Notes under the pieces: model-generated | Seen by the model: the letters and a program-made list of their open reading frames with translations, nothing else | Told to the model about the DNA's origin: nothing | Database searches by the model: none | From: Eggerthellaceae bacterium | GTDB lineage: Bacteria > Actinomycetota > Coriobacteriia > Coriobacteriales > Eggerthellaceae | Length of the DNA stretch: 64,000 nt | Direction: 5' to 3' | Assembly (NCBI GenBank): GCA_045118335.1 | Contig: JBGUXY010000053.1 | Location: 19,365 to 83,364 of the forward strand | Shown: piece by piece, positions 1 to 30,918 of the stretch | Numbering within the stretch: the stretch's first letter is position 1 | How the letters are laid out: each line of letters opens with the position of its first letter | Program-made: the position numbers and the translations under genes

Positions 1-1597
1 GTTGCTGCAAGGGCTCGTAAACGTCTATCTTGAGCTGATTGAGCCCCATCACCTCGGCGCCGATCTCGTAGATTTTCTGGTACTGGGCGACTTCGGTAAT
101 TCGCGAAAACGTGAAGGTGGCGTTGAACCATTCGAGCTTCTCGCGGTGGTTGCTAAGAAGCGTCGCGTCGTTTTCGCTGTAATCCCGAAAGGCATCGGTG
201 TCGTAGCGCACCGCGCCCACCTCGTTGAGCAGCCGATAGTAATTGAACTTCTGGTGCAGCAGGAGCAGGTAGATGAACTTGTGCTGGTAACAGACGTGCT
301 TGAGGAACTCGCCGATAACATACGGCTCTTCCTGTGCATCCGAATACGAAGCAAGGCATGCCAGGTTTTCCGGGGTTATGCCCCATCTGATATCGGGCGA
401 GTCGACGAGCGTTTCTGGTTGAAGATAGGAATCGTCTGCATATGGCACGTTGACGTCGAAGCAGTTCGACAGGTAGAAGAGTTTCCTCTTCGTTTCGGCT
501 TCGGGTGCGTCTTGCGTGACCTCGGCGACGTAGACGAGGGAATTCGCCCTCATGGACTTGCGCCTGAGCTGGCCGGAAGCCGAGGTGTTGTCTCCTTTGT
601 ACGTTGCAGCCGGGGCATGGAAGAACAGGTAAGGGCGGCAGTTTTTCTCTTGCGCCGGCTTTGTCGCGGAATTCCCGCGAAGCAGGTCGCAGGCCAAGAG
701 TTTCCCGAGGTTGCACAGGGATATCCCATGCTCCAGGTTTCCGCTGTCCGCTACTTCCTTGTTGGAATAATCGCTGGAAACGGCTGGGAGGATGCGAACG
801 TTTTGAACCTTTTTCAGGTGGAACATGCCAGAGGCAACCCAATCCGCAACCGAGGTTTCGGGTTCGTCGGGGATGCGGAACGAAAGCTCGAAGACAAGAA
901 CGGCAATGCCCGTGGTGAACCAGTAGCAGTGAACGTGATGGATGTCGAAGAGGTAGTACCATCGGGATTGCTTGCTTTCGTTGGGCTGACTCCAATCCTC
1001 GGGCGGGGTCTTGGGGTATCGATGCGCTTTGAGGATGCGCCAGCAATCGCATGCTCTAAGCTTGGCAATGGCGGTTTCGTCGGCGCGTCCGTCTGGAAAG
1101 AACAGCTCTCCAAGTGTTCTTTCCTTCAGGTCTTGCGAGCCGTTATCGAGGATGGGGCCGTCGGGGAGCAGCTCCCTGTCGAGGTTGAAAAGCCCTAAGT
1201 CGTCCCCCGATTCCTTTTCGGCGACCTCTCGCAAAGCAGTCAGAAAGTCGCAAGGGTTGCCGGATTCTTCGGCGCCCTTGAACACATAATGCCGATACTT
1301 TCCGCTTCTGCTTTCGTCTCTTGTGTGCGAGTCACAGGAGCAGACGCCACTGGTCTTATCGGCGCCTGTGAGTACGCGATGCCGCCGTTTCCCGCTTTTG
1401 CCTTCGTCTCCGGTGCGCAGGCCGAAGATGTAGGAATAAAGGTAGAGCTCCTCGAGCGATTCGGAATCGTCGGATTCGACAAGCCGCCAGTTGGGTGTTT
1501 CCTGTGGGATGGTTACGTTTTCCAAGCTCCCTTCCGTTTTGCCCCTGCAAGCGAACGGCATGTAGATGAACGCCCGATTGATTCCCGCATTACCCAT
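1..1597 (-). CDS. Large hypothetical protein, 3' end runs off the window (ORF absent from the supplied track)
   Basis: Hand translation of the minus strand, in the frame codon-aligned with track ORF 2..1198(+), is open from 1789 down to the window edge. It reads like a natural protein (MPFACRGKTEGSLENVTIPQETPNWRLVESDDSESLEELYLYSYIFG ... SRWYYLFDIHHVHCYWFTTGIAVLVFELSF ... CYQHKFIYLLLLHQKFNYYRLLNEVGAV ... QYQKIYEIGAEVMGLNQLKIDVYEPLQQ). The + ORF translation is L/V/E/D/R-rich and shadow-like. In-frame ATGs lie at 1561, 1597, 1651 and 1672, and the true start is unresolved. No family recognised. Confidence 0.6.
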   Translation of the reverse strand, partial: MGNAGINRAFIYMPFACRGKTEGSLENVTIPQETPNWRLVESDDSESLEELYLYSYIFGLRTGDEGKSGKRRHRVLTGADKTSGVCSCDSHTRDESRSGKYRHYVFKGAEESGNPCDFLTALREVAEKESGDDLGLFNLDRELLPDGPILDNGSQDLKERTLGELFFPDGRADETAIAKLRACDCWRILKAHRYPKTPPEDWSQPNESKQSRWYYLFDIHHVHCYWFTTGIAVLVFELSFRIPDEPETSVADWVASGMFHLKKVQNVRILPAVSSDYSNKEVADSGNLEHGISLCNLGKLLACDLLRGNSATKPAQEKNCRPYLFFHAPAATYKGDNTSASGQLRRKSMRANSLVYVAEVTQDAPEAETKRKLFYLSNCFDVNVPYADDSYLQPETLVDSPDIRWGITPENLACLASYSDAQEEPYVIGEFLKHVCYQHKFIYLLLLHQKFNYYRLLNEVGAVRYDTDAFRDYSENDATLLSNHREKLEWFNATFTFSRITEVAQYQKIYEIGAEVMGLNQLKIDVYEPLQQ

Positions 1598-1770
1598 ATC
1601 AGCACACCAGCTACTGTTATCTTGGCTTCCATGCGCACCCAAAGCCTGCATGCGCACACACGACAACAGCATTATATCTTTGAGGGGACATATGATTGGT
1701 GGTTTTTGGTTTTCCTGACAGGGTGGTACCCTGTTGAAAGATGCTGGGCGCCTTGGGAAAGGAGTGGTTC

Positions 1771-4700
1771 GTGCCTGGAACATACAAGCTCAACGATAGC
1801 CGCACGGTCATCAAGGTGCAGTTCCCTTCGCGGCCGAGCGCGGAGTTTCGCGGCATCTTGAAAGACGCTGGGTTCAAGTGGGTTCCCAAGGAGCAGCTGT
1901 GGCGTGCGGCGAATACGCTCGAGCGCTTGCGCGCTGCCCAACGTGTGGCGGATCCCGACCGCGAGGTGCCCCAAGGCGCCCGTCCCATGAGCTTCAGCTT
2001 CGGAGACAGGCTCGATACGGCACAGAAAGCCGTGGTCATCGACACCGAAGGCCCGGTACTTGTGGTGGCGGGTCCAGGTGCGGGCAAGACCTCTACGATG
2101 GTGAAGCGGATATCGTACCTGGTGCAGGTGCGTGGCGTGCCCCCCGAACAGATCATGGTGGCGACGTATACCCGCAAGGCAGCAAAAGAGCTGCTCACGC
2201 GCATATCCAACGAGTTTTCGGGGATGGAGCATCCCGTCAACGTGGACAAGATGCTCATCGGCACGTTCCACTCGCTGTGTCAGCGCCTGCTTTCCGACTA
2301 TGCCGACCGGGCGGGGATGAAAAACTTCACCGTGCTCGAGGAATTCGACCAGCTGTTCATGGTGGAATACGGCAGGCAGTTTGGCGATTTGCGTCAGGCA
2401 GATCTGTTCAAGACGCCGTATGGGCACCCCATAAAGGGCGCCAAGTATGCCGGCAGGTTTGTGACCTGCGCGAACACCTTGTCTGAAGAGTGCGTGGCAA
2501 CCGGTGACCTTGCCTCGTGCAAAAAAGCGGGAGCCGCCGAGCTTGCAAGGTTCGTGGAGCAATATCGATGCGAGTTGGTCCAGCGCAACCAGATCGATTA
2601 CGCCGGGCTGCAAGTGCGCCTGCTCGACCTCCTGCGCAACGACCCGCAGGTGCTAGCCGAGCTGCGGGAGAAGATCAGCTACATCATCGTGGACGAATAC
2701 CAGGATGCGAATTTCATTCAGGAGCAGATCGTGCTGCTGCTGGCGGGAAGCGCCCAGAACGTGTGCGTGGTGGGCGACGACGATCAGAGTCTTTACCGGT
2801 TTCGCGGGGCCACCGTGCAAAACATACTCCAGTTCGAATCGAACTTCACCGGCGACAAGCGGTGCCGGCGCCATGATTTGGTGGTGAATTACCGCTCTCA
2901 GGTGGGCATCGTCGATTTCTGCCGTCGCTGGATAAGCAGCATGCCACGATACGAGGGCGATGCCACCTGGGGTGGATGCCGCTATGACAAGGCCATTGCG
3001 CCCAATCCCAAGTTCGATCCCGCGGGGGTTAATGCAATATCGGTGGTACGCTGCGATGCGCCTTGTGAAAATGCATGGCGCGAGCGCATGCTGCATTTTG
3101 TGCGCGACATCCAGCGCAGCGATCAGTTCGCCGACCTCAACCAGATTGCCTTCTTGTGCAGTTCTGTGAAATCTACCAAAATTCAAAACCTCATCGCGTA
3201 TTTCGAGGGCAATGGCGTTCCCGTCAACGCCCCACGTGCCAACATGTTCTTCCGACGTGAAGAGGTTCGCGTGGCACTTGGATGCCTGATGCGTTGCTTC
3301 CCCTCGTGCGACAACCCCGACATGGACGAACTCGATGGCTGCTGCATGGCGGCCGACGACGCCTTGTCGACATATCCCGAGCTGGCGGCTTGGGTAAAAC
3401 AGCGCCGCCAGGTGCACGAGAGGGCGGATGAGAAGGACCGCCTGGGCTATGCCTTCAGCGACCTGTTCTATCAGATGCTGTGTTTCGAGCCGTTTCGCGG
3501 TTGGCTCGACAAAACCGACTCGAGCGATATGTTAGATTCCGCCCAGGCGCGCAACCTCTCGCTCGTCGTGTCCATCTGCAGCCGTTTCGAAGTGGGCGAA
3601 AACTTCGTCCAGTTTACCGGGCGCAGCGTGAAAACCATGCCGCTTCGCTTCTTCAAGCGCTACCTTCCCGGCATCATCGACAGTGGGGTAGAAGAATACG
3701 AGGACGAGCGCGAGTACGCGCCTTCGGGGAAAGTGTCGTTTATGACGGTGCACCAGGCCAAGGGCATGGAGTTCCCCGTCGTGGTCGTGTGTTCGCTGGA
3801 AGACGAACCGTGGGGCGATAACGAGCCGCTTGTAGATGCGATCCGTTCCCTGAATAGAAAGCGCGATGAACTCGAGCGTCCTGAAGACCGTGCGAATTTT
3901 GACTTCTGGCGCAAGTACTACACCGCGTTTTCGCGGGCGCAGGATTTGCTGGTGTTGACAACGGCCGGAAGCACGAAAACTCCTTGGGGGCGCGTCAAGC
4001 CCGATCCGAGCGAGTGCTTTGCCAGCTTGGCGGGGTCTTTGCCATCCGTCGAGCGCTTGGATTTCCCGAGCCTGAAATTGCGCAAGGTCAAGCCTGCCAA
4101 CATCATGCGCACGTATGCTTTCACGTCTGACGTAGCTTCATACCAGGCCTGTCCTCGTCGCTACAAGTTCTTCCACGAGCTGGGCTTTCCGCAGGCCAGC
4201 GGCAAGGGGATGCTCTTCGGCACGCTCGTGCACCAATGCGTCGAAGACATCCATCGCATCGTGAAGCGTCGGCGCGACGCGGGAGAAGACGTGAGCAGGC
4301 TCTATATTCCACCGCAGGAAGTGCGTGGCATCGTCACGGAAAACCGCATCGCGCTCGAGCGGGCCGAGAACACGTATCTGCGGCAGATGGACGACGAGGT
4401 GATGAAGCAGGTGCTGAAGTACCTGAAGCATAGCAAGTCCATCTGGCGAGACGTGGTAGAGCCCGAAGCGGCGGTAAGCGAAGTGCGCGATGGGTTCGCT
4501 CTCAAAGGGGTGGTGGACCTAATACACGGCAGCGATGACTGCGTGGAGGTTGTCGACTTCAAGACGGGCGTGATGCCGAAGGAGGGCTCGTCACTGCTCC
4601 AGAAATACCTAAAGCAGATGCTTATCTACGTGCACTTGGTGCGCACGCAGCTGGGCTGCGAGGTTTCGGGCGCAAAGCTTTACTTCACGGGCGACAAAAC

Positions 4701-4869
4701 CGACCGTCCCGTGATAGACGTTGCTTTGGAAACGGCAGACATCGAGGCCCTGCTGCACGAATTCGACCAGGTGGTAAAGCGTATCGAGGCCTGTGACTTT
4801 TCGGCTATTGCCCAGGACGAGGCAGAGTGCAGGGGCTGCCCGCTGTCGGGGTATTGCGGCAGGGTGTAA
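1771..4869 (+). CDS. UvrD/PcrA-like SF1 helicase fused to a C-terminal PD-(D/E)XK (Cas4/AddB-like, Cys-cluster) nuclease domain
   Basis: Track ORF 1741..4869. Helicase motifs: Walker A VVAGPGAGKTS, IIVDEYQD, VGDDDQSLYRFRGA, NYRS, VHQAKGMEFPVVVV, YTAFSRAQDLL. C-terminal nuclease signature: YQACPRRY ... VVDLIHG..VEVVDFKTG ... QMLIYVHLV ... CRGCPLSGYC. Start moved to GTG 1771, with GGGAAAGGAG 6 nt upstream. Confidence 0.85.
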   Translation: MPGTYKLNDSRTVIKVQFPSRPSAEFRGILKDAGFKWVPKEQLWRAANTLERLRAAQRVADPDREVPQGARPMSFSFGDRLDTAQKAVVIDTEGPVLVVAGPGAGKTSTMVKRISYLVQVRGVPPEQIMVATYTRKAAKELLTRISNEFSGMEHPVNVDKMLIGTFHSLCQRLLSDYADRAGMKNFTVLEEFDQLFMVEYGRQFGDLRQADLFKTPYGHPIKGAKYAGRFVTCANTLSEECVATGDLASCKKAGAAELARFVEQYRCELVQRNQIDYAGLQVRLLDLLRNDPQVLAELREKISYIIVDEYQDANFIQEQIVLLLAGSAQNVCVVGDDDQSLYRFRGATVQNILQFESNFTGDKRCRRHDLVVNYRSQVGIVDFCRRWISSMPRYEGDATWGGCRYDKAIAPNPKFDPAGVNAISVVRCDAPCENAWRERMLHFVRDIQRSDQFADLNQIAFLCSSVKSTKIQNLIAYFEGNGVPVNAPRANMFFRREEVRVALGCLMRCFPSCDNPDMDELDGCCMAADDALSTYPELAAWVKQRRQVHERADEKDRLGYAFSDLFYQMLCFEPFRGWLDKTDSSDMLDSAQARNLSLVVSICSRFEVGENFVQFTGRSVKTMPLRFFKRYLPGIIDSGVEEYEDEREYAPSGKVSFMTVHQAKGMEFPVVVVCSLEDEPWGDNEPLVDAIRSLNRKRDELERPEDRANFDFWRKYYTAFSRAQDLLVLTTAGSTKTPWGRVKPDPSECFASLAGSLPSVERLDFPSLKLRKVKPANIMRTYAFTSDVASYQACPRRYKFFHELGFPQASGKGMLFGTLVHQCVEDIHRIVKRRRDAGEDVSRLYIPPQEVRGIVTENRIALERAENTYLRQMDDEVMKQVLKYLKHSKSIWRDVVEPEAAVSEVRDGFALKGVVDLIHGSDDCVEVVDFKTGVMPKEGSSLLQKYLKQMLIYVHLVRTQLGCEVSGAKLYFTGDKTDRPVIDVALETADIEALLHEFDQVVKRIEACDFSAIAQDEAECRGCPLSGYCGRV

Positions 4870-4941
4870 TCCTTGGCGCTGTGCTCTTGACCGCTTCAAA
4901 CGGTTACAATAAGTGCCGTTGCTGCTGCAAGGAGGTTGATC

Positions 4942-5619
4942 GTGACGGTTGGTGCCATATTCGATTGCGACGGTGTTTTGCTCGATTCCGCCAATGCCTG
5001 GCGCGATGCCGAAGATGAGCTCAGTCGACGGGCAGGCGTGAGCCTTTCCGACGAAGACAAGCGCGCGCTGGCGGCCATGACAATTGCCGAGGTTGGTGAT
5101 TTCTTTCACGATCGGTTTGCCCTGGGAGCGAGCGGAGCCGATGTGGTGGCCGCAATCGACGAGCTGATGCGGGATTTCTATGCCAGACGTGCCAAGCCGT
5201 TGCCGGGAGTGGCGGCATTTCTAGATGCGCTTGCCGAACGGGGCGTGCGTATGAGCGTGGTCTCGTCAACGCAAACGGACCTGCTGCGCTTGGGCTTGGC
5301 GCAAACAGGCCTTCTGCCGCGGTTTTGCAGCGTGCTTTCGGTCGAAGACCTGAACACGAACAAGCGCGAACCGCTCATCTACCGCAAGGCCATGGCCGAT
5401 ATGGGCACGACTCCAGAAACAACCTGGGGTTTCGACGACTCTTACTATGCCATCCAGGCCATGGCGGCCCAAGGTATCGCCACCGTGGGCGTCTACGATG
5501 CTCGCAATCCCTTCGAGTTGGAACTCCTGCGCCAGTACGCCGACGTTATCACCTGCGACTACGAGACGCTCGACATTGAACTGCTCGTCGGGACCCCATT
5601 GGGCCGCTCAAGCTCCTAA
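4942..5619 (+). CDS. HAD-superfamily hydrolase/phosphatase (subfamily IA-like)
   Basis: Track ORF 4936..5619. Has the DxDGxxxD nucleophile motif (AIFDCDGVLLDS) and a later VSS/T and FDDS motif. AAGGAGG at 4929-4935 favours GTG 4942 as the start. Confidence 0.8.
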   Translation: MTVGAIFDCDGVLLDSANAWRDAEDELSRRAGVSLSDEDKRALAAMTIAEVGDFFHDRFALGASGADVVAAIDELMRDFYARRAKPLPGVAAFLDALAERGVRMSVVSSTQTDLLRLGLAQTGLLPRFCSVLSVEDLNTNKREPLIYRKAMADMGTTPETTWGFDDSYYAIQAMAAQGIATVGVYDARNPFELELLRQYADVITCDYETLDIELLVGTPLGRSSS

Positions 5620-5659
5620 GTTACGAAAAGCCCTGCCCTCATTCCCAGGGCATGCAGCC

Positions 5660-6580
5660 TTACCGTCCGATCTCGTTTAAGTCGTACGGGGTGGCCTGAT
5701 ACAGGTAGTAGTTCGTCCAGTTGGTGTAGAGTAACTGGCCAGTGGCCTTCCAAACGTTGTGCGGCTCGGCGGTGGGGTCATCGTTTGGGAAGTAGTGTTC
5801 GGGAACGTTGGGGTTCAATCCGCGGTTCACGTCGCGTTCGTATTCCTGCTTGAGCGTGTCGTGGTCGTATTCGCCGTGGCCGAAAACGAAGAAGTCACGG
5901 CTGTCGGTGCTCTTAACTATCGCCACGCCCGCTTCGTCAGAAACCGCGATGACCTCGAGCTTGGGGCAGGCCAAGACGTCTTCAAGCTCCACTCCCGTAT
6001 AGCGTGAGTGCGGCATCTTGAACAACGTGTCGAATCCGCGCACGAGTGGGGAAGTGTGCTTCGAGAGCGTGTGCTCGTATACGCCGGAAAGCTTTTCTGG
6101 CAAGTTTACCTTCGGCACGCCATAGTGGTGGTAGATGCCCGCCATGGCCCCCCAGCAGATATAGAGCGTGCTGAACACGTGAGAGTGGGCCCAATCCATG
6201 ATTTCGCACAGCTCGGGCCAGTAGTCAACGTCTTCGAATTCCAGCAGCTCAACGGGGGCGCCGGTGATGATGAGACCGTCGAAACGGCTGTTGCGGACTT
6301 CGTCGAACGTGCAGTAGAAGCTTTCCAGGTGGTCGGCGGCGGTATTCGTCGAGGTGTAGGACGCCGTGCGGAGCAGCTCCACTTCTATCTGCAGCGGAGT
6401 GTTGGAAAGCTTGCGCAAGATCTGCGTTTCCGTGGCGACTTTCGTGGGCATCAGGTTCAGCAGGAGCACGCGCAGCGGGCGGATGTCTTGGTGCATGGCG
6501 CGATACTCGGTCATCACGAAGATGTTCTCGCTTTCCAGGATGCTTGTTGCGGGCAGTTGGTCGGGAATCTTGATAGGCAT
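5660..6580 (-). CDS. metA: Homoserine O-acyltransferase MetA (acetyl/succinyl)
   Basis: Track ORF 5660..6613. [47 protein letters not shown] is the classic MetA N-terminus. ATG 6580 is preceded by AAAGGAG. Confidence 0.9.
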
Positions 6581-24419: not shown

Positions 24420-26219
24420 CTATTCCAGGTAGGCGCCGGTTTGGCGGTTCCACAGGTGTGCGTACTCACCGCCGGCTTCGATAAGCTGGGCGTGCGGTCC
24501 GTCTTCGACCACCTTGCCGTTTTCCAGCACCACGATGCGGTCCAGGCTTGCAACGGTGGACAGGCGGTGTGCCACGACGATGGATGTGCGTCCGGCCATG
24601 AGCTTCGCCAACGCGTCTTGCACCAAGTGCTCGCTTTCGGAATCGAGCGCGCTCGTTGCCTCGTCGAGCACGAGGATGGGGCAGTTGGCCAACATGGCAC
24701 GCGCAATGGCGATGCGTTGGCGTTGCCCGCCCGAGAGCTTGATGCCACGCTCGCCCGTGACGGTCTGGAAGCCCTGCGGCAGCTTCTCGATGAACTCGAG
24801 CGCGTTTGCCTGTTCGGCCGCGGTACGGATTTCCTCCATCGTTGCATTGGGCTTGCCATAGCTGATGTTTTCCGCGATGGTGCGGTGGAACAGCAGCGCC
24901 TCTTGCGGCACATAGGCGATATTGCGTCGCAGGCTTTGTTGCGTACAATCGGCGACGTTTTGACCATCTACCAGGATCTGGCCTTCCTGAATGTCGCTCA
25001 GGCGGAGCAAAAGCTTTGTGAGCGTGGTTTTCCCCGCGCCGCTCATACCCACGAGTCCAATGCGCTGACCTGCAGGAATGTGCAGATCGAAGCCTTCGAA
25101 CACGCGGGTGAGCGCACCGCCGTCAACATAGGAGAAGCCGATGTCCACAAAGTCGATGTCGCCGCGGATCACCTGCATGTCGGGAGCGCCGGGCGCATCT
25201 GCTACCAGGCGGGGCTCGTCGAGTATCTCGGTCATGCCGCTCGCATCACCGAATGCGCGGTTCAGCCGCTGAAGGCCGGCGTTGATGAAGTTAAACTGGT
25301 TCGTGACGCTGTAGGTGTAGGTGAACATCATCACCAGCGTACCGGGGGTTATGCCAAACCATGCATTACCGCCCGAGATGAACACTGCTACGACACTCAT
25401 GATCACGAGTGCGATGCAGGCTGTCACGATACCGCGCATGAGGCTTGCCATCATGCGTTTGCTGTCGCGGGCGACAACCTCTCGATTGGCGGCATCGAAC
25501 AGGTCGCGCTCGTAATCCTCGCGGCCATAGGTTTTCACGGAAAGGATGTTGGCAACGCTGTCGGAAAGCTCGCCGGATAGGTTGTTTTGCGCGCTTGCTG
25601 CCTGCTCGTTGAGGTTGAGGATGCGCTTGTACATGCGGTAGCTCACAAACGCGTATATGGCCAACATGAACATGAGGATAACGGTGTAGAGTGGCACGCG
25701 CGGCCCCAGTAGCAGGCAGATGAACACGATAGCTTCGATAAGCGGCAGCACTGGCCAGGTAATCACCTCTATGAGCTGGTTGTACGCGTTCATGTATTTG
25801 CTTGTCTGGCTCACGAGCGTTCCGCCGAAGCGATTCGAATGGAAGCTCATCGACTGGTTGCACAGCGCGTCGAACGCTTGCGTGGCCAAGTCGTAGTTCA
25901 CGGCGATTTCCAGCTTCCACAGCGTGTAGTCCTGTAGCTTGCTGAAGCCCTGTCCGAACAGGTTGATAAGAACAAGCGCCAAGATGTACGGTCCGAACAC
26001 GGGGAATACTTGGTCGGCCGATACCGGGTCGGCCGCCACGCGGTCGACGATCAGGCTCATCATGAAGGGGTTGGCATAGGTGAGCAAAAAGCCGAATCCG
26101 ATGGTGGCAAGAACGAGTGTCACGAAATAGCCCATGTGGTTTTTGGTTGCCTGCCAATAAAAGTGTATGGTTCGCCGTGCGGTGGAAGGCATTGCTGGTT
26201 TCTTGGCGGTGCTTGTCAT
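24420..26219 (-). CDS. ABC exporter, fused permease + ATPase (MsbA/ABCB-like)
   Basis: Track ORF 24420..26456. Probable start is ATG 26219 (MTSTAKKPAMP...). Six TM helices, Walker A GMSGAGKTT, signature LSGGQRQR, Walker B ILVLDEATS. No C39 peptidase domain. Confidence 0.9.
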   Translation of the reverse strand: MTSTAKKPAMPSTARRTIHFYWQATKNHMGYFVTLVLATIGFGFLLTYANPFMMSLIVDRVAADPVSADQVFPVFGPYILALVLINLFGQGFSKLQDYTLWKLEIAVNYDLATQAFDALCNQSMSFHSNRFGGTLVSQTSKYMNAYNQLIEVITWPVLPLIEAIVFICLLLGPRVPLYTVILMFMLAIYAFVSYRMYKRILNLNEQAASAQNNLSGELSDSVANILSVKTYGREDYERDLFDAANREVVARDSKRMMASLMRGIVTACIALVIMSVVAVFISGGNAWFGITPGTLVMMFTYTYSVTNQFNFINAGLQRLNRAFGDASGMTEILDEPRLVADAPGAPDMQVIRGDIDFVDIGFSYVDGGALTRVFEGFDLHIPAGQRIGLVGMSGAGKTTLTKLLLRLSDIQEGQILVDGQNVADCTQQSLRRNIAYVPQEALLFHRTIAENISYGKPNATMEEIRTAAEQANALEFIEKLPQGFQTVTGERGIKLSGGQRQRIAIARAMLANCPILVLDEATSALDSESEHLVQDALAKLMAGRTSIVVAHRLSTVASLDRIVVLENGKVVEDGPHAQLIEAGGEYAHLWNRQTGAYLE

Positions 26220-26393
26220 GTGCGTTCCTGTTCGTAGTGCTAAGTTCCGTTCAATACGATACCACAGCCGTTTCCTGTGATGATGGGGTGCTGCAATGGT
26301 GGATTCTCTGTCGATTTGTTGTCGAGAAACACCCAAATGAGCGACAAAAAGCGCCAATGAGTTGCTTATTCTACTATACGGTGAAAATGAGTA

Positions 26394-26422
26394 TTGACGC
26401 TCGCGATAACCAATCCTATCTT
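26394..26422 (+). promoter_or_regulatory. Candidate promoter for the YkvI-TetR fusion gene
   Basis: TTGACG (26394-26399), a 17-nt spacer, then TATCTT (26417-26422). Confidence 0.3.
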
Positions 26423-26478
26423 CCACGATATTCATTATTTGAGTTGGTTTCTGCAACTAGGAAAGGAGTGCGCTGACG

Positions 26479-28323
26479 ATGGTCAACACGAGCGCAATCA
26501 GCAAACGCCATGTTCTCATCTTGGCGGGCGCCATCATTGCATTCACGATCGGCTCGGGTTTTGCAACGGGCCAGGAAATCATGCAGTACTACACGTCGTA
26601 CGGCATGGCCTTCATCGGCACGGTGGTAGTGTTCGCCGTGCTTTTCCTCTACTACAACTTCAATTTCGCCAAAGCGGGGGCCGAACAGCGCTTTGCGAGG
26701 GCGAATGACATCTACAAGTACTACTGCGGCAAGAAGCTCGGCACGGTTTTGGACTACTATTCGACGGCGTTTTGCTACATGTCGTTTTGGGTCATGATAG
26801 GTGGTGCGGCATCCACGTTGCAACAGCAGTATGCATTGCCCCACGTCGTCGGCGGCATCGTGCTCGCCGCCATTACCATCGTCACGGTAGCCGCTGGCCT
26901 TGACAAGCTGGTTGATGCCATCGGCATCGTCGGGCCCATTATCGTCGTGCTCGTCATCATCATCGCCATCGTCACCCTGGTGGGCAACGCCAGCAGCATG
27001 CCCGATGGGCTGGCGGCCATTGCCAGCGCGCCCGATGGGTTGCAAGGTGCTACGGCCGACAACAACATCAAGCAGGCGGCGGCCGACGGTGTCGTGCCGG
27101 GTTGGCTGATGTCCGGCTTTTCCTATGCGGGTTTCGTATTGCTGTGGTTTGCTGCTTTCACTTCTGCTCTGGGCATGAAAAACAAACTGGTCGAGCTCAA
27201 CAGGGGTATCATCGGTGGCACCATCGCCGTGTGCGCAGCTATCCTGTTGGTGACGCTGGCGCAGGTTTGCACCATCAACGTCGAATCACTTTCCAACCCG
27301 GGCGTCTACGTGTGGAATGCCGACATTCCCAACCTCATCTTGGCAGAAAAGATTCTCCCGGCATTCAGCGCCGTGTTCGCCATAGTCGTGTTCGCGGGTA
27401 TTTACACCACGGCTGTACCCCTGCTGTACAATCCCGTTTCGCGCTTTGCCGAAGAGGGTACTATGCGCTTCCGTCTTCTGGCTCTGGCCTTGGGAATCAT
27501 CGGTACGGTTGTCGGTTTGTTCTTGCCATTCCGCGTATTGGTTAACGTCATCTACGTCATCAACGGCTATGTAGGTGCTGCACTGCTGATCTTCATGGTG
27601 GCTCGCAACATCCGCGACTTCGTTCGCAAGCGCAGCGGTGCTGTGGACGATGTCAGCACAGGCGTGCAGCCCGAGGCCGTCTATGCCGCGGAAGGGCAGG
27701 ACTATGTCGGCGATGGCATGAGTCGTTATGCCGAGGTGGCCACCAGCGCGTCGACGCGCCAAATCGATGCCATTGCGCGCATCGCCGAGGCTGCTGCAGC
27801 GCTGCTGGCAGCTGAAGGGCCGCAAGCCGTCACTGCAACGCAGGTCGCCGAACAAGCTGGTGTGTCCACGTCTGAGGTCGTCGAGCACTTTGCAAAAAGC
27901 GACGAGTTGTTGCTGGAGGCAGCTGAGACGAATGCGACTGAATGGGTGGAGCTTGCCCGACGTGCAGCCGACCATGCCGAGTCTCTGTCGCACGAAGAAG
28001 CACATGAGCGCATCGTGGAACTGCTGGTGGAAGCACATCTGCCCGCATCCGACTGGGTTCCCGTCAACTGGCTTGGCCAGATGATGCTCGTTGGCGAATC
28101 GGATACGGTCATGGGTGTCTATCGCCAGTATCGCCCCCTCATCAATGCCGAGCTCAGCCGTATCCTCATCCATGCACGCGTGGATATCGAGCCCTGGTTG
28201 GTGAAGTCGGTGGTGGATGGTGCCACGATCAAAGCGGTATCGGAAGGATACATGATTCGGCCTACCGTTACCGAACAGCTGACCAAGCTGCTGGAGTTCA
28301 ATAGGCTTCCCGTCCAGCGCTAG
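26479..28323 (+). CDS. YkvI-family membrane (transporter-like) domain fused to a C-terminal TetR-like regulator domain
   Basis: N-terminal 390 aa: IGSGFATGQEIMQYY motif and about 10-11 TM helices, typical of YkvI. C-terminal 200 aa: HTH-like VTATQVAEQAGVSTSEVVEHFAKSDELLLEA followed by a helical ligand-domain-like region. It is a single uninterrupted ORF. Confidence 0.75.
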   Translation: MVNTSAISKRHVLILAGAIIAFTIGSGFATGQEIMQYYTSYGMAFIGTVVVFAVLFLYYNFNFAKAGAEQRFARANDIYKYYCGKKLGTVLDYYSTAFCYMSFWVMIGGAASTLQQQYALPHVVGGIVLAAITIVTVAAGLDKLVDAIGIVGPIIVVLVIIIAIVTLVGNASSMPDGLAAIASAPDGLQGATADNNIKQAAADGVVPGWLMSGFSYAGFVLLWFAAFTSALGMKNKLVELNRGIIGGTIAVCAAILLVTLAQVCTINVESLSNPGVYVWNADIPNLILAEKILPAFSAVFAIVVFAGIYTTAVPLLYNPVSRFAEEGTMRFRLLALALGIIGTVVGLFLPFRVLVNVIYVINGYVGAALLIFMVARNIRDFVRKRSGAVDDVSTGVQPEAVYAAEGQDYVGDGMSRYAEVATSASTRQIDAIARIAEAAAALLAAEGPQAVTATQVAEQAGVSTSEVVEHFAKSDELLLEAAETNATEWVELARRAADHAESLSHEEAHERIVELLVEAHLPASDWVPVNWLGQMMLVGESDTVMGVYRQYRPLINAELSRILIHARVDIEPWLVKSVVDGATIKAVSEGYMIRPTVTEQLTKLLEFNRLPVQR

Positions 28324-28405: not shown

Positions 28406-29827
28406 CTAACGCTGCAGGTGTTCTAGAACCTCGGTCTCTAGTTTGGTGGCGAAGTAGTACGATTGGCTCACCTTGCCCATGGCTTTGCCCATGTACACCT
28501 GCTGACCGTTTTTGTACAAATCGCCCAGGCAGTAGATGGGGTAGTTCAGCGGCACGACGTCTTCCACGATGCGGTAACCCATGAACGTGTTGTTCGTTTG
28601 GGTGTAGGTGGCAGTCGGTGCCGTGGTGGTGTGCGTTGGCGTTTGGGTGGGGGCATGCGAGCTGCTCGAGCTGCTGCTCATGCTGGCGAGCAAGGCGCTC
28701 AACCCTATGTTGAGCAAAGCGCTGCCCAAATCGCCTGTCTTTCCAGAGCCATATCCGCCGTAGTAGGGGCTCATCGGGCCTCCGAGATAGGGGTTTTGCT
28801 GCAAACCGCCCATGCCGGCTCCACCCAGCCCCAGAAACGCATCCAAGCCAGTGGGAATCTTGCCCGAGCCCAAGTTCACCGTGGTGACATGCTGTTGCGG
28901 CGGCTTGGAACCGCCCAGGCTCACCGAAGAGGAGTGTTGCTGGGGCTTTCCGCTGCCGATGGGATGCTGCGACGTTGGCTTGCCGTTGAATCCGCCTTTG
29001 GGAGGCTTGCCATCGCGGTGCTTTTCGTCGAAGTAGACGTTCGAGGCGCTCGGAGCGCCGACTTGCGTTGCGCGTCCAGCTGGGGATTGGGCGCCTGCGA
29101 ATGCGGGTTGCATGCTCAGGCCTGCGAATCCGAAGGCGCTATCCATGGCCAAGCGGGCCTTCTCGGGTGCGAGAACCGTCCAGTTCCATACGTTGCGCAG
29201 TCCCTCGTGCAAGCCGCGTGCGGTGTCTGCGACCATGAGTTTCGCTGCTCCCGTGCCGGAAATCGAAGCGGTTCGGTTGGAAATCGCCTTGCTGAAATCG
29301 GACGTGGGACCTTCGATGTGGTTCATCGAGTTCACCAAGATCACGTTTTTGCCGAACGTGTCCAACGCCACGTATACCTTGGTATCGCACGAGCTGTCGG
29401 TGAAGTAGAACGGGTCGAACGAACGCTCTTGGGCGACGAGCGTTTCGATCTCGCGGCCGTTCACGCGTTCGATTTTGTAACAGCGCACATCGTAATAGGC
29501 CACCTGCCGCTTGCTGTAGGGGGCCGTAACGCCACCGCTGCTCTGCGTGACGCCCGTGAGCTCGCAGAACTGGCGATAGTTTTGCGTTGTCTGCCCCAGG
29601 TCTTCCAAGATGGCCACCTGGTCGACCACGCGGCTCGTCTGCGTAGCCCTGATGTCGTCGAGGATCTGCTGCTTGTTGCCGTCCACGAGCATCGATGACC
29701 CCTGGGTCGTTTGCGTCGGGGCCTGTTCTGCAGCGTTGTTCTGCTTGGCCTTGCGCATGCCCCTTATCAGAAGCACGACCAACACGATGACCAAGATCAA
29801 ACCGATAAGCTCTAAAGAATCATCCAT
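28406..29827 (-). CDS. Membrane-anchored GIDE-like domain protein with a long G/P/S/Q-rich insert
   Basis: Track ORF 28406..29869. ATG 29827 (MDDSLELIGLILVIVLVVLLI) follows GAGGA. APYSKRQVAYYDVRCYKIERVNG ... FYFTDSSCDTKVYV and the C-terminal IYCLGDLYKNG ... YYFATKLETEVL resemble bacterial GIDE-domain proteins. The family call rests on pattern memory only. Confidence 0.55.
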   Translation of the reverse strand: MDDSLELIGLILVIVLVVLLIRGMRKAKQNNAAEQAPTQTTQGSSMLVDGNKQQILDDIRATQTSRVVDQVAILEDLGQTTQNYRQFCELTGVTQSSGGVTAPYSKRQVAYYDVRCYKIERVNGREIETLVAQERSFDPFYFTDSSCDTKVYVALDTFGKNVILVNSMNHIEGPTSDFSKAISNRTASISGTGAAKLMVADTARGLHEGLRNVWNWTVLAPEKARLAMDSAFGFAGLSMQPAFAGAQSPAGRATQVGAPSASNVYFDEKHRDGKPPKGGFNGKPTSQHPIGSGKPQQHSSSVSLGGSKPPQQHVTTVNLGSGKIPTGLDAFLGLGGAGMGGLQQNPYLGGPMSPYYGGYGSGKTGDLGSALLNIGLSALLASMSSSSSSSHAPTQTPTHTTTAPTATYTQTNNTFMGYRIVEDVVPLNYPIYCLGDLYKNGQQVYMGKAMGKVSQSYYFATKLETEVLEHLQR

Positions 29828-29935
29828 AATGCCATCCTCTGGGGAATCAGCTTTTGGGGGTGGGCGCACCGGGCGTGGTGCGCTCGTCGCAACGGTGCAT
29901 GGGCTCTCGAGGGTGCCACTGCGCCAGAGAGCGGC

Positions 29936-30607
29936 TTATAAGCCCATTTCTGCCTTCAGGCGCGCAAGTTCGGTGTCAACGGCATCCTCGTGTGCGAGCT
30001 GCGCGAAGTCGTCGACGTCGGATGCGGTAACGCCATAGCCGCTGACTTGGGCATACGCTTCGGCGGTTGCTTCCTTTTCGGCAATCTTGCGCTCCATGCT
30101 GTCGAGCTTGGCGAATGCAGAGTCCATGTTGGTGGTGCTGACGCTGCTGGCTACTCCTGCGGCAGCTTCGGCCATGCGGGCGCGGGCGATTAGCACGTTT
30201 TGACGGGCGCGGGCTTCGTCGAGCTTCATCTTCAGGGTCTGGACCTGGTCCTTCAGCCTGTCTACCTGTGCCGTGATGGCATCGTAGGATTCCTGGAGCT
30301 GGTCCACCTGGGCCTCGAGGCCCACCTTGCAGTCAAGTGCCCTGCGGGCAAGGTCTTCGTTGCCGTTCTTCAGGGCGAGCTTCGCCTTGTCGTTCCAATC
30401 GGCGACTTCGGCCTTCGCATCGGCAAGTTCTTTGGCGGCGATCTTCTGCGAGCCCATCGCCTGGCCAAGGGCTTGCGTGGCTTCATCCACCTGCTCTTCC
30501 ATTTCGATGATCATTTGCTTGACCATCTTCTCGGGGTCTTCTGCCTTGTCGATGAGGTCGTTGACGTTTGCTTTCAAGATGTCTGCGATACGGGAGAAAA
30601 TAGCCAT
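29936..30607 (-). CDS. pspA: Phage shock protein A / IM30 family
   Basis: Track ORF 29936..30616. MAIFSRIADILKANVNDLIDKAEDPEKMVKQMIIEMEEQV is the canonical PspA N-terminus. ATG 30607 follows AAAGGTGA. Confidence 0.9.
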   Translation of the reverse strand: MAIFSRIADILKANVNDLIDKAEDPEKMVKQMIIEMEEQVDEATQALGQAMGSQKIAAKELADAKAEVADWNDKAKLALKNGNEDLARRALDCKVGLEAQVDQLQESYDAITAQVDRLKDQVQTLKMKLDEARARQNVLIARARMAEAAAGVASSVSTTNMDSAFAKLDSMERKIAEKEATAEAYAQVSGYGVTASDVDDFAQLAHEDAVDTELARLKAEMGL

Positions 30608-30918
30608 GTGAATCACCTTTCATCTGGACACTGATATGGCCGCCGGAGTCGCTAGCTCGCGCATGGCATGCATGGTGTCTCGATGTCGGGCGCAAGCCGT
30701 TCTCTTGGTGGCTACATTATCTCATATTTCTGAATTCCTACTGTAGTGCACTTGGGAAGCAAATGCCGTTTGTTTGAAGCTGACGTGCTCGAAAACAGCT
30801 GAGATTGGCGAATACATGGCAAGCTGCCGTTCCTGCCGATTCGCCGCAAGCGGAAGGTTTAGAATTGCAGTTGCGCATGCGCGAGCATCGCATGGGTGCA
30901 ATACGCGAGAGGAAAGAC

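Follow-up and report, generated by a model that had tools for sequence, protein, structure and literature searches.

The locus described here raises the question of what a TetR-type domain does when it is built into the same polypeptide as a membrane transporter. TetR proteins are the textbook example of soluble repressors gated by a ligand, and synthetic biology relies on them heavily. In the stretch of DNA that was analysed (the window, 64,000 nucleotides from an Eggerthellaceae bacterium), one open reading frame joins a YkvI-type permease to a TetR-like domain. A preliminary description of this DNA had proposed that the product couples transport to DNA binding, following the logic of ToxR and CadC.

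It was first asked whether the gene is real. The frame at 26479-28323 of the plus strand starts with ATG, has zero internal stops and encodes 614 aa, and is preceded by a Shine-Dalgarno-like AGGAAAGGAG at a distance of about 10 nt (all features are collected in Table 1). As the window genome is a MAG of 2.36 Mb, 82 % complete and in 94 contigs, two genes might have been artificially joined through an assembly or sequencing error, a lost stop or a frameshift. However, the identical open architecture is found in five independently assembled sequences whose tails are 50-96 % identical, and we therefore consider an artefact very improbable indeed and conclude that the ORF is a true in-frame fusion, as the preliminary description had it. 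Searching for the same architecture in other genomes yielded a second strain from an independent ENA assembly, with a 614-aa copy that is 96 % identical, and three orthologues of 618-627 aa and 66-72 % identity, one of them from a rumen MAG. The three orthologues keep a single frame, and their linkers vary in length by in-frame indels. Met414 aligns with the start of the soluble TetR relatives. A separate soluble TetR made from this internal start was considered and rejected, as no Shine-Dalgarno sequence precedes it and one orthologue has CTG at this codon.

Table 1. Features of the fusion locus, in positions of the window.
Feature	Position	Strand	Basis or remarks
Divergent MsbA-like ABC exporter, probable start 26219	24420..26219	-	Pfam ABC_membrane and ABC_tran
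Divergent intergenic region	26220..26478		Promoter-like site 26394-26422 (+); TGTCGA-N5-TGTCGA 26309-26325
Fusion gene, 614 codons and stop	26479..28323	+	ORF list and translation; five independent full-length versions
YkvI-family / LeuT-fold transporter domain, residues 1-381, 10 TM, N-in/C-in	26479..27621	+	Identity, TM1 motif, hydropathy, charge, Foldseek
Acidic disordered linker, residues 382-413	27622..27717	+	pLDDT, length variation, dN
TetR-type three-helix head, residues 414-475, helix 1 N-terminally extended	27718..27903	+	Predicted: fold kept, DNA-contact residues lost
TetR-type ligand-binding / dimerisation core, residues 476-609, helices 4-9	27904..28305	+	Conserved positions, profile, dN/dS, Foldseek

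The first part of the protein (residues ~1-380/390) is 60-78 % identical to proteins publicly named 'YkvI family membrane protein' and contains GSGFATGQE, the invariant TM1 motif. No model in Pfam or NCBIfam matched this domain. By Foldseek it matches AgcS, MhsT, Nramp and BasC, and it is probably a transporter of the amino-acid type. The preliminary description had allowed for 10-11 transmembrane helices; ten of these stand, with ten hydrophobic segments in the hydropathy profile and ten long helices in the AF2 model, and the eleventh does not. Lysine and arginine residues of the domain number 17 on the predicted inside versus 3 outside, from which it follows that the tail is cytoplasmic. The linker between the two parts has an AF2 pLDDT of <50 at residues 391-418, and its length differs among orthologues. 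It is probably made of the old C-terminal tail of the transporter and the intergenic spacer. In one relative (G057) an unfused ykvI is followed, after a gap of 174 nt, by a TetR gene.

That the C-terminal ~200 residues are TetR-like was borne out. Residues 414-609 were modelled as a nine-helix TetR-like fold (AF2 and Foldseek) with a pLDDT of 88-98 (88-96 in the head), and in the window protein Pfam TetR_N was matched at residues 435-481 with 29.5 bits, versus a cut-off of 24. The Foldseek matches of the tail are TetR regulators, with TM scores of 0.6-0.74 against TetR-family structures, and by sequence it matches 2OER, 4ICH and 4KWA. In the most degenerate fused copy the pLDDT is 92-98, and all of the top 50 Foldseek matches are TetR regulators. 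BetI-like matches and matches to choline complexes give weak hints to a ligand of the tail. The AF2 model of the full-length protein has no confident contact between tail and transporter (pTM 0.58, with the linker disordered).

The fused tails were then compared with soluble relatives, 27-47 of which were used for conservation, the fused side being five sequences from one narrow clade. Conservation in the soluble relatives reaches 80 % or more in 44 columns. The clear-cut losses among these lie in the head, where one Arg each in helices 1 and 2 and a Ser and a Tyr-Tyr-Phe in helix 3 are affected. These positions (R432, R454, S465, Y469, Y470 and F471) are conserved in 22-27 of 27 soluble relatives; the first five, for which the number is 22-26 of 27, are replaced in all fused copies, and F471 is partly lost. 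Nearly all of the structural and core positions that are conserved in the soluble relatives are retained, the latter including N485, W489, L521, P522, Y548, R552, D580, G581, S588, E589 and G590, and the core positions G551, L555 and A577 also differ in the fused copies. The net charge of the head is -2 to -6 in the fusions versus +3.6 ± 1.4 in the soluble relatives, and against a profile of the clade the fused heads score 22-45 bits versus 79 ± 14.5, the fused cores 122-142 bits versus 131 ± 32. The rates of change agree with this division: among the fusion orthologues, dN is 0.10-0.145 in the transporter, the slowest part of the gene, 0.17-0.46 in the core and 0.57-0.75 in helices 2-3 of the head, which is about that of the linker (0.48-0.98). 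The dN/dS of the core is about 0.07-0.2, a rough value given that dS is saturated among the fused copies. The extension of helix 1 is conserved and specific to the fusions. As judged from these alignments, the head has kept its fold, lost its DNA-contact residues and become acidic, and the core is conserved and has been under purifying selection after the fusion. Taken together, the lost contacts, the acidic head and the selected core indicate that the tail most likely no longer binds DNA.

This result bears on the possibility that the protein is a membrane-tethered TetR repressor, a one-component transceptor in which the tail would bind an operator and release it once transporter or tail binds its substrate. 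The window protein does have a transmembrane region and a cytoplasmic HTH-fold domain in one chain, its helix-turn-helix fold is confidently predicted, and a flexible linker of 30-45 residues could reach DNA. The window copy is also the least degenerate of the five, as it passes the TetR_N threshold and keeps the His-Phe that ends helix 3. A survey of predicted transmembrane regulators gives 2,995 with TetR_N, and such regulators are common in Eggerthellaceae (PMC10269533); the two TetR_N entries inspected in its list are, however, proteins of ~200 aa with one predicted TM (PMC10269533). Several observations speak against a tethered repressor: conserved residues for DNA contact are missing, the head has a net negative charge, no other folded part of the protein is as poorly conserved as helices 2-3, and in three of the four orthologue lineages (P0002, P0003 and P0004) TetR_N finds no match even at E <= 10. 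The loss of the contact residues makes a DNA-binding function doubtful but does not disprove it. We consider a tethered repressor unlikely, and the coupling of transport to DNA binding put forward in the preliminary description is not upheld.

Nor did the region upstream of the gene yield a conserved or over-represented operator-like motif. The direct TGTCGA repeat reported there is present, with a spacing of N5 and not of N7. The 2.36-Mb genome has one TGTCGA-N5-TGTCGA, against 0.95 predicted by chance from the frequency of the hexamer, and the upstream region, repeat included, shows no conservation with the upstream regions of the orthologues; the repeat was accordingly rejected as an operator. 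Inverted repeats within 26220-26478 are only short and weak. A riboswitch in the leader was likewise rejected, with no Rfam match in this interval at E <= 1.

The gene order around the fusion was also compared. The ABC exporter said to be divergent from the fusion gene was confirmed, its NCBIfam matches being MsbA-like and under the cut-off, and the three orthologue loci have no such neighbour. Fusions sit between genes for RNase H and a carbamoyltransferase, and that of the window between the ABC exporter and a GIDE/PspA pair. In two orthologue loci the fusion adjoins a canonical TetR gene (here 'type b', with an FYRYY motif), which also adjoins an unfused orthologue in Slackia. A 376-aa ORF next to a type-b TetR gene on contig C15 was examined as a YkvI relative and found not to be YkvI-like. 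Layouts that resemble a precursor of the fusion occur in relatives: besides the G057 order given above, there are loci in which a ProP-like MFS gene is followed by TetR, and TetR in turn by a gene for YkvI, for a GadC-like permease or for an aminotransferase. The Slackia gene, which is the closest unfused orthologue, lies beside grdX and glycine-reductase-type genes, a weak hint to a substrate or ligand. A link of the fusions to glycine/sarcosine reductase was rejected, since only this unfused orthologue shows it; the grd region of the window genome has an SNF-family transporter instead.

How often the fusion arose was judged from searches and a tree. A search of 1.84 billion representative proteins with the TetR part gave 198 relatives, of which a single cluster is fused, and neither this search nor a scan of the family gave another YkvI fusion with this TetR clade. 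A single fused copy was found among the 151 genomes of the family, and one further GTDB species with the fusion, the rumen MAG RUG11223, was recovered by the second of two genome pattern scans, the first having returned none. A pattern scan of JGI metagenomes gave no match, and a region-restricted word search for further fusions gave unrelated tandem TetRs only. In the tree, the five fused domains group together (support 100/100) as a clade nested within the soluble TetRs on a stem of 1.02 substitutions/site. The fusion arose once and is confined to a few uncultured members of a narrow gut and rumen lineage of Coriobacteriia.

Such a narrow distribution would also be expected of a neutral fusion accident, in which the tail does no more than dimerise the transporter, or nothing at all, and persists since its loss is not favoured. 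The long stem branch and the faster evolution of the tail relative to the transporter are in line with a passive appendage, as is the 96 %-identical strain, in which 20 of the 24 differences to the window copy fall within the last 234 residues. Yet the frame is open in all five versions despite the indels in the linker, the core has the low dN/dS given above and profile scores equal to those of functional soluble relatives, and the helix-1 extension found only in fusions is conserved. On this balance we regard a merely passive tail as quite unlikely.

It was also considered whether the DNA-blind tail might capture a partner, by forming heterodimers with a soluble canonical paralogue (in the window genome the L002 locus, contig C30, 1399-2073) by way of the four-helix interface through which TetR proteins dimerise, so that the transport state would tether the paralogue at the membrane or poison its DNA binding. 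Both of the searchable fusion genomes keep such a paralogue, with an identity of 39 % (G000) and 50 % (RUG11223), and positions of the core and of the C-terminal helix are common to fused and soluble copies. However, the soluble paralogue is present in ~45 of the 151 family genomes irrespective of the fusion, so that its co-occurrence with the fusion is not specific, and at 39-50 % identity the formation of heterodimers is uncertain. Partner capture thus appears rather improbable.

The model that we prefer, with a probability of roughly 0.55, is that the ligand-binding and dimerisation module of a TetR protein has been put to a new use, as a regulatory tail on the cytoplasmic side of the transporter. 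It would have begun with a single event that fused a YkvI-family secondary transporter of the LeuT fold to a TetR-family regulator, the donor belonging to a TetR clade that normally lies beside genes for amino-acid or osmolyte transporters. The stop codon of the transporter would have been lost and the former spacer turned into a disordered linker of 30-45 residues; in the head the fold would then have been kept while the DNA-contact residues went and the charge turned acidic, with the core held by purifying selection. Attached to the transporter, the tail would probably serve in the cytoplasm to sense a small molecule and to dimerise, tuning transport according to an intracellular metabolite, and transcriptional control would pass to separate canonical TetR genes. 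We infer in this way both the sensing of a ligand and the allosteric control of transport by the tail. The locus may be read as a case in which the transporter has taken over the TetR module that it formerly adjoined, a module that lost its surface for reading DNA but retained the core for ligand and dimer formation.

If this holds, a regulator would have moved from transcriptional to post-translational control of the same target, in a compact design in which the TetR pocket sets the gating of the transporter. A literature search for membrane-anchored or DNA-blind TetR proteins returned nothing specific. We suggest tentatively that the TetR fold serves either as a non-DNA-binding allosteric cis sensor of a LeuT-fold transporter or as a membrane trap for its soluble TetR paralogue; in either case it would, if true, be the first TetR domain to control a membrane transporter directly as a protein and not via a promoter. 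The ligand of the tail may also point to the substrate of the YkvI transporter, which belongs to an unstudied family.

Set beside known systems, the transporter part shares a LeuT-type 10-TM core and the TM1 motif with the YkvI family, such as B. subtilis YkvI and Pyrococcus horikoshii PH0137, the latter a 10-TM putative D-amino-acid importer (PMC13628549). The other YkvI members found are 376-470 aa long and, unlike the fusion, have no folded cytoplasmic domain. Among solved structures, the tail comes closest to the Saccharomonospora viridis TetR (4ICH/4KWA), EilR (5VL9) and 2OER. With the soluble Coriobacteriia TetR clade it has in common the nine-helix all-alpha fold, the structural and hydrophobic positions of the head and the core motifs, at 34-50 % identity; those relatives are free proteins of ~200 aa, whereas the fused domain is C-terminal on a 10-TM protein. 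Like the fusion, ToxR, CadC, TcpP and BcrR (such regulators are surveyed in PMC10269533) combine a membrane domain with a cytoplasmic domain of DNA-binding ancestry. Their DNA-binding domain is functional and usually N-terminal, and the membrane part is sensory and not a transporter. In the fusion, by contrast, the DNA-reading surface appears to have degenerated, and what lies in the membrane is an entire transporter. A similar logic is known from the cytoplasmic tails of secondary and ABC transporters, such as the CBS domains of OpuA, the STAS domain of SulP/SLC26, the TrkA_C/RCK domains and the C-terminal domain of BetP, none of which, to our knowledge, is a TetR fold. In the preferred model the fusion would share with these the placing of a ligand- or state-sensing soluble domain on the cytoplasmic end of a transporter.

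The fusion gene was found to be an unbroken ORF of 614 codons in the window translation, with an ATG start and a purine-rich ribosome-binding site about 10 nt 5' of it. The window lies within contig C53 of a MAG (2.36 Mb, 94 contigs, 82 % complete), and Slackia and Eggerthellaceae are the nearest named relatives. A second protein, P0277, from a separate ENA assembly, is also 614 aa long and aligns without gaps at 96 % identity, while three further full-length fusions (P0002, P0003 and P0004; 618-627 aa) show 66-72 % identity across 97-100 % of the length, P0004 coming from RUG11223, a rumen MAG recorded as 'uncultured Coriobacteriaceae bacterium'. As the fused architecture recurs in independent assemblies and the frame stays open although linker length varies, an assembly frameshift is excluded in practice, and we give almost no credence to an artefact. 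The in-frame YkvI-TetR fusion of the preliminary description thus stands.

Residues 1-380 have 60-78 % identity to proteins named 'YkvI family membrane protein' and share with YkvI-family relatives the invariant TM1 motif GSGFATGQE; Pfam and NCBIfam held no model for this part. The YkvI-type assignment was upheld, and the 10-11 TM helices first proposed were set at ten by hydropathy and the AF2 model. K+R number 17 on the predicted cytoplasmic side vs 3 outside, and five basic residues cluster directly after TM10, which places both termini of the membrane domain, and with them the tail, in the cytoplasm. In Foldseek the domain groups with the LeuT-fold transporters AgcS, MhsT, Nramp and BasC, and its dN among four fused lineages is 0.10-0.145. 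The YkvI family comprises uncharacterised putative amino-acid transporters. Pyrococcus PH0137 has been described as a 10-TM putative D-amino-acid importer (PMC13628549).

In the AF2 model, residues 391-418 are disordered (pLDDT <50; linker dN 0.48-0.98 among the four lineages) and residues 413-609 form nine helices (pLDDT 88-98). Pfam TetR_N matches residues 435-481 of the window protein at 29.5 bits (cut-off 24), NCBIfam gives weak BetI-like matches and nothing stronger, and Foldseek places the tail near the TetR-family structures 4ICH/4KWA and EilR (TM 0.6-0.7), confirming the TetR-like C-terminal domain. The most degenerate tail, that of P0004, kept its fold when modelled alone (pLDDT 92-98), and its top 50 Foldseek matches were all TetR regulators (50/50). 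Met414 aligns with the start of the soluble relatives; an internal start there is not proposed, because it has no Shine-Dalgarno and the codon is CTG in one orthologue.

The fused tails were aligned with 27 soluble relatives, in which 44 columns are at least 80 % conserved. Nearly all structural and core positions of these columns are kept, including A438-A440, G447, P448, V451, V456, A457, L477, L478, N485, W489, L521, P522, Y548, R552, D580, G581, S588, E589 and G590, with differences at a few core positions (G551, L555, A577). Lost are R432 (helix 1), R454 (helix 2), the equivalent of TetR Arg28, and S465, Y469 and Y470 (helix 3), equivalents of the DNA-contacting positions in TetR and QacR; F471 is lost in part. 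The 48-residue head has a net charge of -3, -6, -2 and -3 in fused copies vs +3.6 ± 1.4 (range 0 to +6) in soluble relatives. When scored with a profile of 47 soluble relatives, the fused heads reached 22-45 bits vs 79 ± 14.5 for leave-one-out soluble controls, the two low-scoring controls being N-terminally truncated, and the fused cores 122-142 bits vs 131 ± 32. Pfam TetR_N was undetected in P0002, P0003 and P0004 even at E <= 10. Among the four lineages dN is 0.17-0.46 in the core and 0.57-0.75 in helices 2-3; dS is saturated, which leaves dN/dS ratios rough. Taken together, these sequence comparisons argue that the head fold is kept and its DNA-reading surface lost, and the ligand/dimer core behaves as in a working TetR.

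The proposal of a transceptor coupling transport to DNA binding was therefore not borne out, given the lost contact positions, the negative head and three orthologues without TetR_N. The window copy is the least degenerate, its helix 3 ending V-E-H-F, and may thus retain residual DNA affinity; even so, a still-functional tethered repressor is unlikely. The TGTCGA direct repeat put forward as its operator exists, with a spacing of N5 and not n7, about 70 bp upstream of the single promoter-like site; the genome contains a single occurrence vs 0.95 expected, and nothing matching it precedes the orthologues. Operators of TetR proteins are as a rule palindromic, and the inverted repeats in the fusion upstream region are all short and weak. 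No riboswitch was found there.

A full HMMER scan of 1.84 billion representative proteins recovered 198 tail relatives, among which the fusion is the sole long cluster with a transporter at its start, the others being TetRs of ~200 aa or tandem TetRs of ~400 aa. Within 151 same-family genomes the fusion was found in the window's genome only, unfused YkvI in ~38 and a soluble tail relative in ~45. Pattern scans added RUG11223 alone from 185,579 GTDB species genomes and no further fusion from JGI metagenomes. The architecture thus recurs elsewhere, in a narrow distribution. A tree of 52 domains unites the five fused copies in a single clade (support 100/100) inside a 24-member soluble TetR clade (100/99), with a stem of 1.02 substitutions/site leading to them, indicating that the fusion arose once and then changed at an accelerated pace. 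Members of the soluble clade typically follow a ProP-like MFS symporter gene immediately and precede that of a GadC-like permease, aminotransferase or YkvI paralogue. In the same-family relative genome G057, a same-strand ykvI and TetR pair (L013) has a precursor-like, unfused layout, and its TetR lies on a long branch (1.25 substitutions/site) together with P0150; it is a second, independent link of this TetR clade with YkvI. The fusion would have followed loss of the ykvI stop codon, with the spacer then read through into the TetR gene.

Coordinates of the features discussed
Feature	Location	Strand	Remarks
Fusion gene	window 26479-28323	+	
TGTCGA-N5-TGTCGA	window 26309-26325		
Promoter-like site	window 26394-26422		
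ABC exporter, longest ORF	window 24420-26456	-	TTG start at 26456, 22-nt gap to fusion gene; ATG at 26219 suits ABC_membrane match better (intergenic region then 259 bp)
PspA/IM30 gene, then 487-aa membrane protein with C-terminal GIDE match	window 28406-30616	-	convergent to fusion
Type-b TetR	L003 7249-7809		
Type-b TetR	L005 3446-4006		
Type-b TetR	L004 5194-5757		
Type-b TetR, window's genome	C15:6162-6719		
Type-b TetR, window's genome	C33:3181-3711		
Unfused ykvI (401 aa), then TetR (197 aa, intact YYF motif)	L013 (G057:C6) 640-2613	-	174 nt apart
Gene after Gly_reductase-family gene, Slackia heliotrinireducens	L004 8950-10245		one in-frame stop, as expected of a selenocysteine-containing GrdB/GrdF-type subunit
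ProP-like MFS, TetR, YkvI paralogue module	L031 (G057:C53) 2361-6413	-	paralogue 469 aa; cytoplasmic C-terminal extension of ~85 residues, Glu-, Ala- and aromatic-rich
GadC-like glutamate/GABA antiporter gene downstream of soluble-clade TetR	L024 5510-7807		L024/L028 products 736-765 aa; 511-position GadC model covers residues 28-496 only, ~250-270 aa surplus, C-terminal
GadC-like glutamate/GABA antiporter gene downstream of soluble-clade TetR	L028 3795-6005		as for L024

The window fusion is flanked by the divergent ABC exporter already described, which is MsbA-like, and by the convergent GIDE-like/PspA pair. Three orthologue loci have other neighbours, in the order PTPS - RNase H - fusion - carbamoyltransferase, so the exporter is not a conserved partner. 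In at least two of them a canonical 'type b' TetR (186-199 aa, FYRYY motif, weak TetR_C_8 match) lies between fusion and carbamoyltransferase; this type travels with the present ykvI lineage. In Slackia heliotrinireducens it precedes an unfused ykvI, followed by grdX and glycine-reductase-type genes, which suggests DNA-level control of the lineage by another regulator and hints at a small amino acid or N-methyl amino acid as substrate. The window's genome has no YkvI homologue besides the fusion; its type-b copies lie away from it, one beside an SNF-family transporter and selenocysteine machinery, and in its grd region an SNF-family transporter takes the place of YkvI. A soluble canonical paralogue beside an aminotransferase is kept in both fusion-bearing genomes searched; that the tail captures it by heterodimerisation nonetheless seems improbable to us.

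We favour, at a probability of about 0.55, that a TetR ligand-binding/dimerisation module was reused as the transporter's cytoplasmic regulatory tail, its DNA binding lost; this regulatory mechanism is what we infer. A passive or merely dimerising appendage is unlikely. Literature searches yielded no description of a TetR fused to a transporter, nor of a TetR tail blind to DNA. One survey lists TetR_N in 2,995 predicted transmembrane transcription regulators and gives ~117 such regulators per Eggerthella genome; two TetR_N entries of its supplement are ~200 aa with one predicted TM (PMC10269533). Judged by its sequence, the fusion would be classed among transporters with a fused cytoplasmic regulatory domain, one that is here TetR-derived and DNA-blind.
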